Sequence record: PX068456.1
Direction: 5' to 3' (one strand)
Source of the DNA: a phage
DNA length: 64,000 nt
Shown: piece by piece, positions 60,558 through 62,719 of the stretch
Layout: each line of letters opens with the position of its first letter
Numbering within the stretch: the first letter of the stretch is position 1
Program-made: the position numbers and the translations under genes
Notes under the pieces: generated by a model
Databases searched by the model: none
Seen by the model: the letters and a program-made list of their open reading frames with translations, nothing else
What the model was told of the DNA's origin: nothing

Positions 60558-60633
60558 TGGTCAGTGCGGCAGGACTCGAACCTGCGACCCGAAGCATCCA
60601 AAGCTCCCACGCTACCAACTGCGCTACGCACTG
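60558..60633 (-). tRNA. tRNA-Pro(UGG): tRNA-Pro (anticodon TGG)
   Basis: acceptor CAGTGCG/CGCACTG, D arm GCGC-AGTTGGTA-GCGT, anticodon loop TTTGGAT, T arm GCAGG-TTCGAGT-CCTGC. Confidence 0.7.
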
Positions 60634-60640
60634 TAAATAC

Positions 60641-60715
60641 TGGCTGGAGATCTAGGAATCGAACCTAGTCATCACGACTTCAAAGGCCGTTGCCTTCCCA
60701 CTAGGCTAATCTCCA
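60641..60715 (-). tRNA. tRNA-Gln(UUG): tRNA-Gln (anticodon TTG)
   Basis: acceptor TGGAGAT/ATCTCCA, anticodon stem ACGGC/GTCGT loop CTTTGAA, T arm CTAGG-TTCGATT-CCTAG. Confidence 0.7.
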
Positions 60716-60814
60716 ATAAAACTAAAAATCACTTAAAAAGAACCGCTAGAGTTTGAAGGAGAAAACCATGAGCGAAAAGAGAAATTTTCTCTAGCGATTC
60801 CATTTAAATAATCT

Positions 60815-60889
60815 TGGAGCGAGTAACAGGACTTGAACCTGCACCTGGAGGGTGGAAACCTCATATGCTACCATTAACACTATACCCGC
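60815..60889 (-). tRNA. tRNA-Gly(UCC): tRNA-Gly (anticodon TCC)
   Basis: acceptor GCGGGTA/TACTCGC, anticodon loop TTTCCAC, T arm GCAGG-TTCAAGT-CCTGT. Confidence 0.65.
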
Positions 60890-60944
60890 TTAACAATATT
60901 ACTCTAACATATTATTAGCCCCTTTGTCAAGAGGCTTTTGATAT

Positions 60945-61268
60945 TTATTTTAAAATAGTAGATGCACCACGTCTGTTTAGATATGCAATAGTAAAATCCA
61001 AATCACCTATTTCTTCAGGTTCCCACTGACCTTCTAAACCATAACAAGAACAATGATATGCGTGTACTTCATAAAACAAAGATGTTTTCATATCATAAAA
61101 ATAAACGTGAGATTCACCTTCATAATATGCACAATCATAAGTGGCAGAAAGAATTACAATGTTATCCTTATCTAACTCTACTTCATAATATCTTTCAACA
61201 TCTTCAATATCATCAAAACCATCGAAAACATTGATATTAAAATATTTCTCTAACTCTTTTTCTGTCAC
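60945..61268 (-). CDS. hypothetical protein embedded in the tRNA cluster
   Basis: 107-aa ORF between tRNA-Gly and tRNA-Thr. Confidence 0.4.
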   Translation of the reverse strand: MTEKELEKYFNINVFDGFDDIEDVERYYEVELDKDNIVILSATYDCAYYEGESHVYFYDMKTSLFYEVHAYHCSCYGLEGQWEPEEIGDLDFTIAYLNRRGASTILK

Positions 61269-61291
61269 ATATACTCCTTTAGAGTTAAAAT

Positions 61292-61366
61292 TGGTGCTCC
61301 CACAAGGACTCGAACCCTGATAAGTTGCTTACAAGGCAACCGTAATAGCCGTTATACGATAGGAGC
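61292..61366 (-). tRNA. tRNA-Thr(UGU): tRNA-Thr (anticodon TGT)
   Basis: acceptor GCTCCTA/TGGGAGC, anticodon stem GTTGC/GCAAC loop CTTGTAA, T arm CAGGG-TTCGAGT-CCTTG. Confidence 0.7.
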
Positions 61367-61445
61367 AAAATATTTGCTTGGTAGGATTTGATACCTACAA
61401 TTCTAGAAAATTCTAGAGGTTTCTATTAACTCTACAAGCACTATT

Positions 61446-61530
61446 TGGCGATGGATCAAGGATTTGAACCTTGCTAGAACTTTCGTTCACGGATTAACAG
61501 TCCGTCGCCCAACCACTAGGCCAATCCATC
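61446..61530 (-). tRNA. tRNA with Asn anticodon (GTT) but an unusually long, hairpin-forming variable region
   Basis: acceptor GATGGAT/ATCCATC perfect, anticodon arm ACGGA-CTGTTAA-TCCGT, 15-nt variable region GAACGAAAGTTCTAG, T arm CAAGG-TTCAAAT-CCTTG. Confidence 0.5.
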
Positions 61531-61537
61531 TTTAATT

Positions 61538-61623
61538 TGGTGCAGGTAGTTGGACTCGAACCAACGAAGCCCCGAAGGGCAGGAGATTTACAGTCTCCAG
61601 CAATTGCCGCTATGCGATACCTA
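61538..61623 (-). tRNA. tRNA-Tyr(GUA): tRNA-Tyr (anticodon GTA), type II
   Basis: acceptor GTAGGTA/TACCTGC, anticodon stem GGAGA/TCTCC loop CTGTAAA, long variable arm, T arm GTTGG-TTCGAGT-CCAAC. Confidence 0.7.
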
Positions 61624-61629
61624 CGTGTT

Positions 61630-61705
61630 TGGTACATCGTGAAGGATTCGAACCTTCGACCTTGGAGTTAAAAGCCCCTTGCTCTACCAACTAAGCTAAC
61701 GATGT
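61630..61705 (-). tRNA. tRNA-Lys(UUU): tRNA-Lys (anticodon TTT)
   Basis: acceptor ACATCGT/ACGATGT perfect, D arm GCTT-AGTTGGTA-GAGC, anticodon loop CTTTTAA, T arm GAAGG-TTCGAAT-CCTTC. Confidence 0.7.
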
Positions 61706-61838
61706 ATAAATTATCTTTAAAATAGCCAGTGTTTGCGGCACTTGACTATGAAGTATTAGGGTATCGGTAAGATGGTGGAGGCCATCTGCCGAAAGTTTAC
61801 TCTATTAAAGTAAGATTACAAGCTACATTAAAGATAAC

Positions 61839-61924
61839 TTGGCGGTAGATGTAGGACTTGAACCTACACGCCGTTTCCGACGACAGTTTAGCAAACTGTT
61901 GTGGCTACCATTTCACCAATCTAC
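61839..61924 (-). tRNA. tRNA-Ser(GCU): tRNA-Ser (anticodon GCT), type II
   Basis: acceptor GGTAGAT/ATCTACC perfect, anticodon stem ACAGT/ACTGT loop TTGCTAA, long variable arm, T arm GTAGG-TTCAAGT-CCTAC. Confidence 0.7.
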
Positions 61925-61933
61925 CGTTCTTAA

Positions 61934-62086
61934 TTATTCAAAACAACCGGAATCTTTTTGTTCTGCTTTTACCATACGAATATTTTTACCATCTTCAGAT
62001 TGTTGAAGATTAGAATACTCATAAACAACTTTATTATCTACAATCTTAACTCCGGTAACAACCTGTCCAATAGTTTTATAATTCAT
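61934..62086 (-). CDS. hypothetical small protein embedded in the tRNA cluster
   Basis: start moved to internal ATG with AGGAG RBS so that it does not overlap the tRNA-Ser(TGA) gene. Confidence 0.3.
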   Translation of the reverse strand: MNYKTIGQVVTGVKIVDNKVVYEYSNLQQSEDGKNIRMVKAEQKDSGCFE

Positions 62087-62104
62087 AAAGCTCCTAGTTG
62101 AATT

Positions 62105-62194
62105 TGGAGGAAGATAATGGAGTCGAACCATCACCGTATCGCTACAATGGGCCAGGGTTCAAACCTGGTTGCGCACCGCTGCGCCCTACCTTCC
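62105..62194 (-). tRNA. tRNA-Ser(UGA): tRNA-Ser (anticodon TGA), type II
   Basis: acceptor GGAAGGT/ATCTTCC, anticodon stem CCAGG/CCTGG loop TTTGAAC, long variable arm, T arm GATGG-TTCGACT-CCATT. Confidence 0.6.
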
Positions 62195-62257
62195 CGTTAT
62201 CATACTTTAAATCTAACATAAAACTATCTTGCTTGTCAAGTAGTTTTTAAAACTTTT

Positions 62258-62339
62258 TGGTCGGGGTGACAGGATTCGAACCTGCATACTCCAATTACTC
62301 GGTTAACGCCTGATTAGAAGTCAGGTGAGATACACCCCG
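62258..62339 (-). tRNA. atypical tRNA-like gene with Arg anticodon (TCT); no recognisable D arm, 23-nt region between anticodon and T arms
   Basis: acceptor CGGGGTG/CACCCCG perfect, anticodon arm CCTGA-CTTCTAA-TCAGG, T arm GCAGG-TTCGAAT-CCTGT. Confidence 0.45.
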
Positions 62340-62411
62340 TTTTCACAGTAACTATAACAAAAAACTAAGTGAATGTCAAGATATTTTTACTAAAATTATT
62401 ATTTAAATTGA

Positions 62412-62517
62412 AGCCTAGTTATGGAATCGAACCATATTTCGTATTTAGTTAGACAAAGCGGTCTAACATATTTTTCAGGCTTTGATGGCCTCGGAATTAC
62501 CAAATACCCTACTAGGC
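62412..62517 (-). ncRNA. tRNA-like element of ~106 nt (canonical T arm and matching acceptor halves, oversized body)
   Basis: T arm TATGG-TTCGATT-CCATA and perfect acceptor GCCTAGT/ACTAGGC about 100 nt apart; internal 7-bp hairpin GTTAGAC..GTCTAAC; no confident anticodon arm. Confidence 0.25.
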
Positions 62518-62519
62518 GT

Positions 62520-62605
62520 TGGTGCAAGTGGAGGGATTCGAACCCTCAATCATTTAAGCGTTGCGTTTTAAGCACAATGTGTATCACCAATTCCACCACA
62601 CTTGC
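62520..62605 (-). tRNA. tRNA-Leu(UAA): tRNA-Leu (anticodon TAA), type II
   Basis: acceptor GCAAGTG/CACTTGC perfect, anticodon stem TTGTG/CGCAA loop CTTAAAA, long variable arm, T arm GAGGG-TTCGAAT-CCCTC. Confidence 0.7.
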
Positions 62606-62719
62606 ATATAGGAGATGCATAGCACCTCCTTTTAAATGGTGGTTCCCCAGGGTTACAATCCCTGCCCTCGACACTTATGAGGTGTGCGCTCTCGTCAGTG
62701 AGCTATGGAACCTTGAATA

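Follow-up and report, generated by a model that had tools for sequence, protein, structure and literature searches.

A phage tRNA gene with an asparagine anticodon and an extra variable arm: conservation, probable identity and possible role

The stretch of DNA analysed here (the window, 64,000 nt) comes from a phi92-like E. coli myovirus and carries a cluster of 16 tRNA genes at positions 59836..62712, all found by ARAGORN on the minus strand. One of these, a tRNA-Asn(GUU) gene of 85 nt with an encoded CCA, spans 61446..61530 on that strand and is supported by ARAGORN, by the Rfam model RF00005, by its fold and by 53 identical records. The initial annotation had given exactly these coordinates; the gene runs on the minus strand, however, and the quoted letters correspond to the window read in reverse complement. 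The genes for tRNA-Tyr (61538-61624) and tRNA-Lys(UUU) (61630-61705) lie on one side and that for tRNA-Thr(UGU) (61292-61366) on the other, all on the minus strand. A promoter-like site on the same strand (TTGACA-18-TAGATT with an extended -10 TG, 62210..62239), recognized by its match to the consensus alone, is located upstream of the run Ser-Ser-Lys-Tyr-Asn-Thr. The long-arm gene is the sole tRNA-Asn of the phage's tRNA cluster, and the annotated relative OP177727, in which the cluster stops before the NAMPT gene, likewise has a single tRNA-Asn. In some phi92-like relatives, the tRNA cluster is interrupted by HNH endonuclease genes.

ARAGORN called 61446-61530 as a tRNA-Asn(gtt) of 85 nt, and RF00005 was matched over its full length with 56.5 bits (gathering score 29, E = 1.2e-10), in an alignment that made CUGUUAA the anticodon loop and put a 12-nt insertion into the variable region. 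Folded for minimum free energy, the gene gives a cloverleaf with an additional variable-arm hairpin, GAAC-GAAA-GUUC, at -29.5 kcal/mol (z = -2.6 against shuffles). The 5' strand of the acceptor stem, GAUGGAU (61524..61530, minus strand; G1-C72, A2-U71, U3-A70), belongs to a helix in which all 7 pairs covary in the homologue alignment. It is followed by the D arm GCCU-AGUGGUU-GGGC (61507..61521, minus strand), drawn by ARAGORN with three Watson-Crick pairs, a U13.G22 pair and both G18 and G19, and by the anticodon arm ACGGA-CUGUUAA-UCCGU (61489..61505, minus strand), defined by Rfam and by comparison with E. coli tRNA-Asn, with the anticodon GUU at 61496-61498 on the same strand. The variable region GAACGAAAGUUCUAG (61474..61488, minus strand) has 15 nt, namely a 4-bp stem closed by a GAAA tetraloop and, at the 3' end, three unpaired nucleotides (UAG), an arrangement supported by the fold and by compensatory changes in homologues. 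The T arm CAAGG-UUCAAAU-CCUUG (61457..61473, minus strand, from Rfam) and the 3' strand of the acceptor stem, AUCCAUC, with discriminator G73 (61449) and the encoded CCA (61446-61448; together 61446..61456, minus strand), complete the molecule. The acceptor and T stems are thus in the 7/5 configuration. The gene has the cloverleaf of RF00005, including a 7-bp acceptor stem, a 5-bp anticodon stem with U33 and a purine at 37 in its 7-nt loop, and GGUUCRANUCC in the T arm; its homologues covary in all five helices, and a 15-nt variable region with its own 4-bp stem and GAAA loop gives it a class II-type architecture (variable region of more than 10 nt with its own stem-loop). An 85-nt tRNA with a 15-nt hairpin-forming variable region, as the initial annotation had described it, is therefore what ARAGORN, Rfam, folding and covariation recover. 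Its asparagine anticodon arm was confirmed as well: a different anticodon register, which had been named as the way in which that reading could fail, does not emerge because Rfam, ARAGORN and the GenBank tRNAscan-SE annotations all read GUU.

The 85-nt gene occurs with 100% identity in 53 phage records, compared with 96.7-99.4% for the 4.5 kb around it, and the phi92-like phages PaulScherrer, EmilieFrey and JohannJBalmer of E. coli K-12 have it unchanged. The number of GenBank phage records matching it is 155, and 696 match its T5-like homologue. Long-arm homologues occur in hundreds of phage genomes of the phi92-like, phAPEC8-like, PVP-SE1, T5-like and T4-like groups. Furthermore, about 12% of the tRNA(GUU) genes in a sample of viral contigs carry the extra arm, and long-arm tRNA(GUU) turns up in viral contigs of very different kinds as well as in tRNA arrays of bacteria. 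No close homologue of the 85-nt gene was detected by blastn at E <= 1 in 5,426 E. coli genomes.

In an alignment of 21 homologous sequences, 98.8% of cells can pair, compared with 73.6% in shuffles and 33-48% in slid controls, and changes on both sides were recorded in 20 of the 24 pairs, including all 4 pairs of the variable arm. The stem of that arm is exchanged as a whole among homologues (GAAC/GUUC, GAGA/UCUC, GAGU/ACUC, GUUC/GAAC, GUC/GAC), and 62 of 106 loops are of the GNRA type. G18 and G19 are present in all 116 long-arm family members examined for them, 75 of which have an A-U or G-C pair at 15-48. Consequently, 61446-61530 is a real and conserved phage tRNA gene with a GUU anticodon and an extra hairpin arm; the tRNA is under selection and its fold is no chance product. 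The wide occurrence of long-arm homologues rules against a one-off chimera. Note that 19 contigs hold both a long-arm and a short-loop tRNA(GUU), a coexistence that is compatible with complementary roles or with redundancy. Long arms are also borne by phage tRNAs for Thr, Lys, Cys and Trp, as a module of about 1 nt, 3-4 bp and 3-4 nt.

The comparison with the host that the initial annotation had proposed was carried out with an E. coli tRNA-Asn reference sequence (asnT/U/V/W) that was confirmed in 5425 of the 5426 complete genomes. The phage and host molecules share the anticodon GUU, G73, 16 of the 17 positions of the anticodon arm, the UAAUCC of positions 36-41, the 7/5 configuration and an encoded CCA. 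They differ in length (85 nt in the phage, 76 nt in the host), in the variable region (a 15-nt hairpin arm as opposed to the 5-nt loop AUGUC) and in the first acceptor pair, which is G1-C72 in the phage tRNA and not the U1-A72 typical of bacterial tRNA-Asn. Outside the anticodon arm only 14 of 41 positions are identical, whereas 27 of 41 are shared with the tRNA-Ser(GCU) that the phage itself encodes.

Asparagine identity in E. coli resides in G34, U35 and U36 together with G73, a set that can be transplanted into another tRNA (PMC9976931). The long-arm tRNA-Asn carries all four bases. Among 119 distinct long-arm tRNA(GUU) sequences, G73 is present in 113 and U1-A72 in 77 (65%), and the short-loop tRNA-Asn of the same contigs give comparable counts (23/24 and 15/24). 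About 42% of the long-arm family has C2-G71. When the anticodon arm is left aside, family bodies are most similar to the co-resident short-loop tRNA-Asn (0.59), followed by tRNA-Ser(GCU) (0.50) and tRNA-Tyr (0.47). A classifier of isotypes built as position-weight matrices from 2,114 phage tRNAs, with the anticodon masked, ranked Asn first in 52 of 92 long-arm family members and among the top two in 80, with Ser first in 2, Tyr in 4 and Leu in 1. The window gene itself scored 35.0 bits for Gln, 29.9 for Ser, 29.5 for Trp, 29.2 for Tyr and 29.1 for Asn; outside the anticodon arm it is not Asn-like and is without a clear isotype signature.

Several marks of the amino acids that normally go with a long arm are missing. 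In phage tRNA-Ser, G2-C71 is found in 83 of 88 sequences (94%) and A3-U70 in 69 of 88 (78%), but the window tRNA has A-U at 2-71 and U-A at 3-70, and so lacks the serine acceptor pattern despite G1-C72 and G73. Leucine and tyrosine identity require A73, and for LeuRS and TyrRS alike G73 acts as an antideterminant (PMC9976931); A73 is present in 46 of 51 phage tRNA-Tyr and in 63 of 66 phage tRNA-Leu, while the window tRNA has G73 and the anticodon GUU. The geometry of the arm (0-1 unpaired bases, 3-4 bp, 3-4 unpaired bases) resembles that of tRNA-Tyr. With tRNA-Ser the molecule shares the long variable arm, G73 and C11-G24, but not the acceptor pairs, nor the arm of 5-8 bp with a single 3' spacer base that most phage tRNA-Ser have; long-arm tRNA-Asn have 3-4 bp and 3-4 unpaired bases. 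The window arm has 4 bp and three unpaired 3' bases, unlike most Ser arms; the phage's own tRNA-Ser(GCU), however, has an arm of 4 bp and 15 nt too. Other isotypes that bear long arms in the same phage contigs also keep their discriminators (Cys U73 in 6/6, His C73 in 4/4, Trp G73 in 5/5, Ile A73 in 16/16, Lys A73 in 7/8). Across the long-arm family, the primary structure thus bears asparagine marks and lacks both the serine set and the Leu/Tyr discriminator, and the extra arm was most likely acquired without transfer of Ser, Leu or Tyr identity. The initial annotation had also suggested a chimeric or recoded molecule whose identity is altered; this finds no support since the asparagine identity bases are complete, the A73 of Leu and Tyr and the G2-C71 of Ser are missing, and family bodies are of the Asn type. 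One point nevertheless speaks for the initial annotation: the body of this particular gene lacks a clear isotype signature and is closer to tRNA-Ser(GCU) than to host tRNA-Asn, and some mis-serylation may occur.

We propose that the gene probably encodes a functional elongator tRNA-Asn with a grafted variable arm. The tRNA would be transcribed from the minus strand within the polycistronic tRNA cluster and processed in the same way as its neighbours. Host AsnRS would charge it with asparagine through G34, U35, U36 and G73, and during infection it would decode AAC and AAU as asparagine, supplementing the host tRNA-Asn or substituting for it should the host tRNA be depleted. The added helix, directly 3' of the anticodon stem, would alter the shape of the tRNA at that place. 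This may enable escape from cleavage of the anticodon stem by TOPRIM nucleases (PARIS AriB, P2 OLD), and the arm could let the phage retain, in its host-identical form, the anticodon stem-loop that AsnRS needs. As class II synthetases, AsnRS among them, come to the tRNA from its variable-loop side, the extra arm could hinder charging.

Three other readings of the gene deserve consideration. In one of them, to which we assign a very low probability, the molecule is a missense tRNA that is charged by SerRS, alone or together with Asn, and inserts serine at AAC and AAU, much as nematode nev-tRNAs or bacterial allo-tRNAs act. Serine identity does not depend on the anticodon but on the arm and G73 (PMC9976931; PMC7609411), and the window tRNA has the long variable arm, G73, G1-C72 and C11-G24. 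The tRNA-Ser(GCU) of the phage, a single base change (GCU to GUU) away in its anticodon, shares the 15-nt variable length and the GAAA loop and is, equally with Gln, the nearest in body within the cluster, while the Ser and Asn matrices score the window gene nearly equally. In this phage it is a weak argument that SerRS would need a longer arm, because its own tRNA-Ser(GCU) has a 15-nt region and a GAAA loop. Against outright recoding stand the 2-71 and 3-70 pairs already described, the three unpaired bases that follow the arm as in Tyr, where Ser mostly has one, and the near absence of first ranks for the Ser matrix in the family. Moreover, U1-A72 predominates in the family and C2-G71, frequent in it, is an antideterminant for SerRS in E. 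coli tRNA-Leu (PMC9976931). Other long-arm isotypes retain their own discriminators and not G73. Finally, the gene provides the lytic phage with its only tRNA-Asn and does not vary among 53 genomes, and systematic Asn-to-Ser errors would be costly. Recoding to serine is consequently unlikely.

A history of leftover structure, in which a neighbouring gene for Ser(GCU) or Tyr(GUA) was duplicated, shifted by one anticodon base to Asn and kept its arm as tolerated baggage, is in our view unlikely too; a Tyr origin would also need a change of A73 to G73. The tRNA-Tyr gene is 7 nt away and Ser(GCU) belongs to the same putative operon, their anticodons are each one substitution from GUU, the geometry of the arm is Tyr-like, and the body of the window gene is far nearer to Ser(GCU) than to host tRNA-Asn. 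The switch of identity would be easy because four bases suffice for asparagine. Taken alone, the window gene is compatible with such an anticodon shift, but we set this origin aside since the similarities and classifier ranks of the family favour an Asn-type body, nearest to short-loop Asn and not to Ser or Tyr. The window body itself is identical to Tyr at just 20 of 41 positions. Compensatory substitutions in all four arm pairs and the frequent GNRA loops show that the arm is kept across distant phage families, and the same module is met again on the tRNAs for Thr, Lys, Cys and Trp, which argues for recurrent gain or selection and not for a single accident. A conflict with homing endonucleases, which we consider improbable, would instead have the 10-nt insertion and the turnover of the variable region selected at the DNA level, because they abolish or displace the sites that the nucleases recognize, or co-carried by homing, with no benefit to the RNA. 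Homing endonucleases target phage tRNA genes, notably those for tRNA-Asn. The preferred SegB homing site in T2L, RB1 and RB3 is indeed a 27-bp sequence within the tRNA-Asn gene (PMC2330249). The short-loop tRNA-Asn allele of T5 overlaps an ORF with the annotation T5orf172 or putative homing endonuclease; it takes the place of the long-arm allele at one and the same locus, where the 3' flank does not differ. The HNH endonuclease genes inside the clusters of some phi92-like relatives fit as well. Yet covariation of the arm and its stable tetraloops speak of selection on the RNA fold, and the spread of long-arm tRNA(GUU) over very diverse viral contigs and bacterial arrays also weighs against homing.

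For the working tRNA-Asn that we favour, the leading hypothesis on the role of the arm, which draws on analogy with known systems, is that it may help the tRNA to evade nucleases of the anticodon stem, PARIS AriB and P2 OLD among them. Phages are known to encode anti-defence tRNAs: T5 tRNAs for Lys, Thr and Asn act against PARIS, tRNA-Thr against P2 OLD and tRNA-Tyr against retron Eco7. AriB cleaves the E. coli tRNAs Lys(UUU), Thr(UGU) and, more weakly, Asn(GUU) between positions 40 and 41, in the last case at U36AAUC|C41, and the substitution U39A abolishes cutting of tRNA-Lys (PMC12409363). The window tRNA-Asn is, like the anti-defence tRNAs, a phage copy of a nuclease-targeted tRNA and is clustered with the PARIS targets Lys(UUU) and Thr(UGU). 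Known anti-defence tRNAs, however, resist because bases of the anticodon loop or stem are substituted or because the stem is shorter, whereas the window tRNA-Asn keeps the host sequence and adds an arm. Its positions 36-41 are UAAUCC, the same as in the host site cut by AriB, and the published hallmark of resistance, a substitution at or next to the cleavage site, is absent from it. In the same window, Lys(UUU) has UAACUC and Thr(UGU) has UAAGCA, both altered at position 39, while Asn is unaltered and extra-armed.

A similar alternation is seen in T5-like phages. At one locus, about 136 records have a tRNA-Asn of the short-loop form whose anticodon stem is mutated (the T5 type) and about 274 have a long-arm tRNA-Asn with a host-like stem. 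The Thr(UGU) of T5 is short-loop with G39, and that of the BASEL-collection phage Bas33 (HildyBeyeler) and about 100 other T5-like phages is an 87-nt long-arm molecule with a host-like UAAUCA. In the 14-kb tRNA cluster region of Bas33 that was examined, the only Thr(UGU) gene and the only Asn(GUU) gene are both long-arm. The Thr(UGU) of Bas33, in the same cluster as its long-arm tRNA-Asn, shares with the window tRNA-Asn a GNRA-capped short arm on a normally short-loop isotype and a host-like anticodon stem. It is of another isotype, though, and the functional support that it lends (OLD rescue, and PARIS escape with tRNA-Lys alone) is indirect: expressed alone, it strongly rescued OLD-sensitive phages (preprint 10.64898/2026.07.10.737580), and Bas33 has been published to escape PARIS with tRNA-Lys alone supplied. 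The resistance of Bas33 could also come from other differences in the tRNA body. A short-loop Thr tRNA of T4 is OLD-resistant as well, published mechanisms of resistance concern the anticodon stem and not the variable arm, and Asn is merely a secondary target of AriB (PMC12409363). In environmental viral contigs, UAAUC at positions 36-40 was not enriched in long-arm tRNA(GUU) (41%, against 40% in short-loop), a comparison that is a weak test because the hosts of these contigs are not identified. Two further candidates for functional evidence were rejected. Rescue from PARIS toxicity by the tRNA-Asn of T5 is inapplicable because the gene tested experimentally, unlike that of the window, is a 78-nt short-loop molecule with a mutated anticodon stem. 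The long-arm-type tRNA-Asn of Bas34, reported to be insufficient against PARIS, is a pseudogene with a disrupted T arm and 3' acceptor strand and without an ARAGORN call. In the full-text-searchable literature, which leaves subscription-only work such as the 1980s sequencing of T5 tRNAs outside, we found no description of a long-arm phage tRNA-Asn or of the variable arm being involved in nuclease evasion.

A broader conjecture, which we put forward tentatively and think less probable than not, is that the GNRA-capped short arm is a portable, identity-preserving module and a steric shield against anticodon-stem nucleases (PARIS AriB, OLD and relatives). Its recipients would then be Asn most often and also Thr(UGU), Lys, Met/Ile(CAU), Ile, Cys, Trp and His, a generalization that is equally tentative.

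Reviews confine long variable arms to the tRNAs for Leu, Ser, bacterial Tyr and Sec (PMC7609411, PMC9976931). The nematode nev-tRNAs (PMC3333845) and allo-tRNAs (PMC5389517) share with the phage molecule a long arm and an anticodon for an amino acid other than Leu, Ser or Tyr. Their identity, however, comes from a Leu, Ser or Ala body, with mistranslation or suppression as the outcome, whereas the marks of the phage tRNA follow its anticodon. Allo-tRNAs furthermore have acceptor and T stems of 8/4 or 9/3 (PMC5389517), in contrast to the 7/5 found here. The known exceptions to the rule are thus cases of mistranslation, while the phage long-arm tRNA-Asn appears to keep its cognate identity and is common.

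If the arm guards against defences that cut tRNA, this would account for the tRNA copies with host-like anticodon arms in phages and would represent a new structural principle in the arms race between phages and their hosts. It would also mark a naturally validated site for the insertion of a helix in the engineering of Asn, Thr and Lys tRNAs. Should the arm prove to be a portable shield, it would constitute a second general route by which tRNAs serve counter-defence, one not described so far, and the restriction of long arms to Leu, Ser, Tyr and Sec would fail in the virosphere.

ARAGORN calls an 85-nt tRNA-Asn(gtt) gene on the minus strand of the window (61446-61530), which gives a full-length match to the Rfam tRNA covariance model (56.5 bits; gathering score, 29; E = 1.2e-10). 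Its minimum-free-energy fold, with which the ARAGORN drawing agrees, adds a fifth hairpin (GAAC-GAAA-GUUC) to the cloverleaf. The molecule consists of an acceptor stem (GAUGGAU/AUCCAUC), a D arm (GCCU-AGUGGUU-GGGC), an anticodon arm (ACGGA-CUGUUAA-UCCGU), a 15-nt variable region (GAACGAAAGUUCUAG), a T arm (CAAGG-UUCAAAU-CCUUG), and a 3' end with discriminator G73 and an encoded CCA. The initial annotation had described an Asn(GUU) anticodon arm combined with a long variable arm, and ARAGORN, Rfam, and the fold all bear this out; the Rfam alignment treats the variable region as a 12-nt insertion and reads the anticodon loop as CUGUUAA, in the same register. According to reviews, only Leu, Ser, bacterial Tyr, and Sec tRNAs have long variable arms (PMC9976931, PMC7609411).

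The window belongs to a phi92-like E. coli myovirus (Justusliebigvirus; top match OP177727, 99.4% over 4.5 kb). ARAGORN places 16 tRNA genes in a minus-strand cluster (59836-62712) in which Lys(UUU), Tyr, Asn, and Thr(UGU) adjoin one another, with a promoter-like site (62239-62210) upstream of the run Ser-Ser-Lys-Tyr-Asn-Thr. The existence of the gene is already known, as a routinely annotated tRNA-Asn; in the annotated relative OP177727, the cluster stops short of the NAMPT gene, and tRNAscan-SE calls a single tRNA-Asn in it. The host tRNA-Asn, found in 5425 of 5426 complete E. coli genomes, is 76 nt long with a short variable loop. Phage and host molecules match at 16 of 17 positions of the anticodon arm and at only 14 of 41 in the remaining body, and a search of E. 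coli genomes with the 85-nt gene returned no close homologue. Elsewhere in the window, the 79-nt tRNA-Met(cat) (60058-60136, minus strand) has its anticodon at position 37 and, by parse, a discriminator U, unusual for a Met or Ile2 tRNA. An unannotated tRNA-like gene (62261-62339, minus strand; Rfam 40 bits, missed by ARAGORN) lies directly downstream of the top promoter-like site of the region (62379-62351). It combines acceptor stem CGGGGUG/CACCCCG, a 7-nt linker alone in place of the D arm, anticodon arm CCUGA-CUUCUAA-UCAGG (UCU, Arg AGA), a long variable region in which CCGA-GUAA-UUGG forms a hairpin, an ordinary T arm, and A as discriminator. At least 80% of it is covered in 211 phage records, where its annotation is nearly always missing, with 83-87% identity in FelixO1-like phages.

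The long-arm tRNA-Asn is a family and not a one-off accident. The gene recurs at 100% identity in 53 phage records and at 93% in Klebsiella phages. Homologues of 82-87 nt, all with GUU, G73, CCA, and the variable-arm hairpin, occur in phAPEC8-like phages, Salmonella phage PVP-SE1, three genera of T5-like phages, T4-like phages of Klebsiella, Enterobacter, and Serratia, and one Pseudomonas jumbo phage. When 21 homologues were aligned, 98.8% of cells were paired, compared with 73.6% in shuffles and 33-48% in slid controls, and 20 of 24 pairs, including all four of the variable arm, showed changes on both sides. A pattern scan of IMG/VR revealed more than 100 further long-arm tRNA(GUU) of 79-94 nt, very diverse, and a scan admitting both long-arm and short-loop forms found the long arm in 13 of 109 tRNA(GUU) genes. 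In bacterial assemblies the long-arm form is nearly confined to dense arrays of 10-36 tRNA genes per 8 kb. Arrays with 18-36 tRNA genes in 8 kb, for example in Mycobacterium, Verrucosispora, Thermoguttaceae, and Haliscomenobacter (comparison loci L136, L145, L202, L233, L238, L213, and L205), fit the mobile tRNA array units of the literature. Several 146-kb 'Campylobacter phage' records (MG065639, MG065645, MG065656, and MG065689) contain the tRNA-Asn of phi92-like coliphages at 100% identity; their host labels, or the records themselves, appear doubtful.

Asn identity in E. coli is defined by the three anticodon bases and G73 and can be transplanted into another tRNA (PMC9976931); all four bases are found in the window gene. 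Leu and Tyr identity requires A73, with G73 listed as an antideterminant for both enzymes (PMC9976931). Ser identity, in turn, is independent of the anticodon and is set by the arm together with G73 and the uppermost part of the acceptor stem (PMC9976931), which makes Ser charging the serious rival. We parsed about 2,100 phage tRNAs out of the retrieved contigs and compared them. G73 is frequent in both phage tRNA-Ser (68/88) and long-arm tRNA(GUU) (113/119). G2-C71 is present in 83/88 of the former and 43/119 of the latter (A-U in the window gene), A3-U70 in 69/88 and 22/119 (U-A in the window gene), and U1-A72, found in 77/119 long-arm tRNA(GUU), was not seen in tRNA-Ser (G1-C72 in 71/88). 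Arms of phage tRNA-Ser mostly have stems of 5-8 bp, one unpaired base on the 3' side, and varied loops; those of long-arm tRNA(GUU) have stems of 3-4 bp, 3-4 unpaired bases as in Tyr, and a GNRA loop in 62/106. Short-loop tRNA-Asn of the same contigs have G73 in 23/24 and U1-A72 in 15/24, and co-resident short-loop Asn are the nearest relatives of long-arm Asn bodies when the anticodon arm is left out. A weight-matrix classifier with the anticodon masked ranked Asn first in 52/92 and among the top two in 80/92, with Ser first in only 2/92. Long-arm Thr(UGU), Met/Ile(CAU), Ile, Lys, Cys, Trp, His, and Glu also occur in these contigs, and the discriminators of long-arm Cys, His, Trp, Ile, and Lys match their own isotype, not the G73 of Ser. 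Because of these discriminators and the body comparisons, the extra arm does not appear to carry Ser identity along. In IMG/VR loci L012-L130, a sample ascertained via long-arm Asn and thus biased in its isotype frequencies, the long arm is present in Thr(UGU) 12/53, Met/Ile(CAU) 13/80, Ile(UAU) 12/23, Cys 6/45, Trp 5/42, His 4/45, and Lys 8/103 (e.g., L023, L038, L054, L055, L121, and L123); some of the Ile(UAU) show unusual T arms and may in fact be of a different kind.

The body of the window gene itself has no clear isotype signature (Gln 35 bits; Ser, Trp, Tyr, and Asn near 29-30 bits in the classifier). Its match to the phage's own Ser(GCU), which likewise has a 15-nt arm, is 27/41, not exceeded by any other tRNA compared. 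Overall, the window tRNA is quite probably charged with Asn, and significant serylation seems very improbable. The further suggestion of the initial annotation, a recoded or chimeric tRNA, is mostly rejected, given the complete Asn identity set and the Asn-like bodies of the family.

Between positions 40 and 41, the AriB nuclease of the anti-phage system PARIS cleaves E. coli Lys(UUU) and Thr(UGU) and, to a weaker extent, Asn(GUU); U39A in tRNA-Lys abolishes cleavage, and PARIS is neutralised by the combination of T5 Lys, Thr, and Asn tRNAs (PMC12409363). At this motif, UAAUCA in host Lys and Thr, the window Lys(UUU) (61630-61705, minus strand) reads UAACUC and Thr(UGU) (61292-61366, minus strand) UAAGCA, both altered at position 39, which suggests adaptation to PARIS-like nucleases. 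The window Asn reads UAAUCC, as in the host, and is the member of this trio with the extra arm.

In T5-like phages, the Cys-Asn locus holds either a short-loop T5-type allele overlapping a putative homing-endonuclease ORF (about 136 records) or a long-arm allele with a host-like stem (about 274 records). In T5 itself, the variable loop of tRNA-Asn is short and the anticodon stem is mutated. The T5 allele (78 nt; L009 6953-7030 = NC_005859 33952-34029) has a mismatched stem, GCAUC/GUUGA, and overlaps T5.069 (T5orf172 or putative homing endonuclease in the annotation of relatives); the long-arm allele measures 83-86 nt (e.g., Lindwurm, L005 55-137). Both occupy one locus with a shared 3' flank, which looks like cassette replacement driven by homing. 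Thr(UGU) likewise has two forms, the T5 short-loop form with G39 and an 87-nt long-arm form with host-like UAAUCA (36-41) in Bas33 (HildyBeyeler) and about 100 other T5-like phages. Within the 14-kb tRNA cluster region examined in Bas33 (NC_105119), Thr(UGU) (87 nt, arm GGA-GUAA-UCC; L365 7001-7087) and Asn(GUU) (86 nt; L365 1777-1862) are all long-arm. An added tRNA-Lys alone suffices for Bas33 to escape PARIS (PMC12409363), and Bas33 Thr(UGU) expressed by itself strongly rescues phages sensitive to OLD, the P2 tRNA nuclease (preprint 10.64898/2026.07.10.737580); neither study mentions the variable arm. Taken together, this is indirect evidence that a long-arm form of a normally short-loop tRNA may translate and resist TOPRIM nucleases with its cleavage motif intact. 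The annotated tRNA-Asn of Bas34 (SelmaRatti, MZ501103; L010 401-483) is long-arm, with T arm and 3' acceptor strand unpaired, and is not called by ARAGORN. We take it as a probable pseudogene located at a deletion junction; its disruption would be a possible reason for the dependence of Bas34 on external tRNA-Asn in published PARIS experiments.

As the best explanation, the window gene probably encodes a working tRNA-Asn with an extra arm maintained by selection, and we infer for the arm a possible role as a shield against tRNA-cutting defences. Against such a shield, AriB cuts Asn only as a minor target, resistance is also seen in short-loop phage tRNAs by way of anticodon-stem changes, and across environmental contigs the anticodon-stem motif does not differ between long-arm and short-loop tRNA(GUU). 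Two other accounts are less probable. DNA-level conflict with homing endonucleases could shape the arm, in line with the preference of SegB for a site that lies in T2L's gene for tRNA-Asn (PMC2330249), or the arm could simply be inherited from a Ser or Tyr ancestor.

Full-text searches of the literature turned up neither an account of a long-arm phage tRNA-Asn nor any link between the variable arm and escape from nucleases. In the known exceptions, nev-tRNAs (PMC3333845) and allo-tRNAs (PMC5389517), identity follows the body and causes mistranslation; unlike these, the window tRNA apparently keeps its identity. What is new is a tRNA with a grafted arm that apparently retains its identity and is common in the tRNA arrays of phages and mobile elements.
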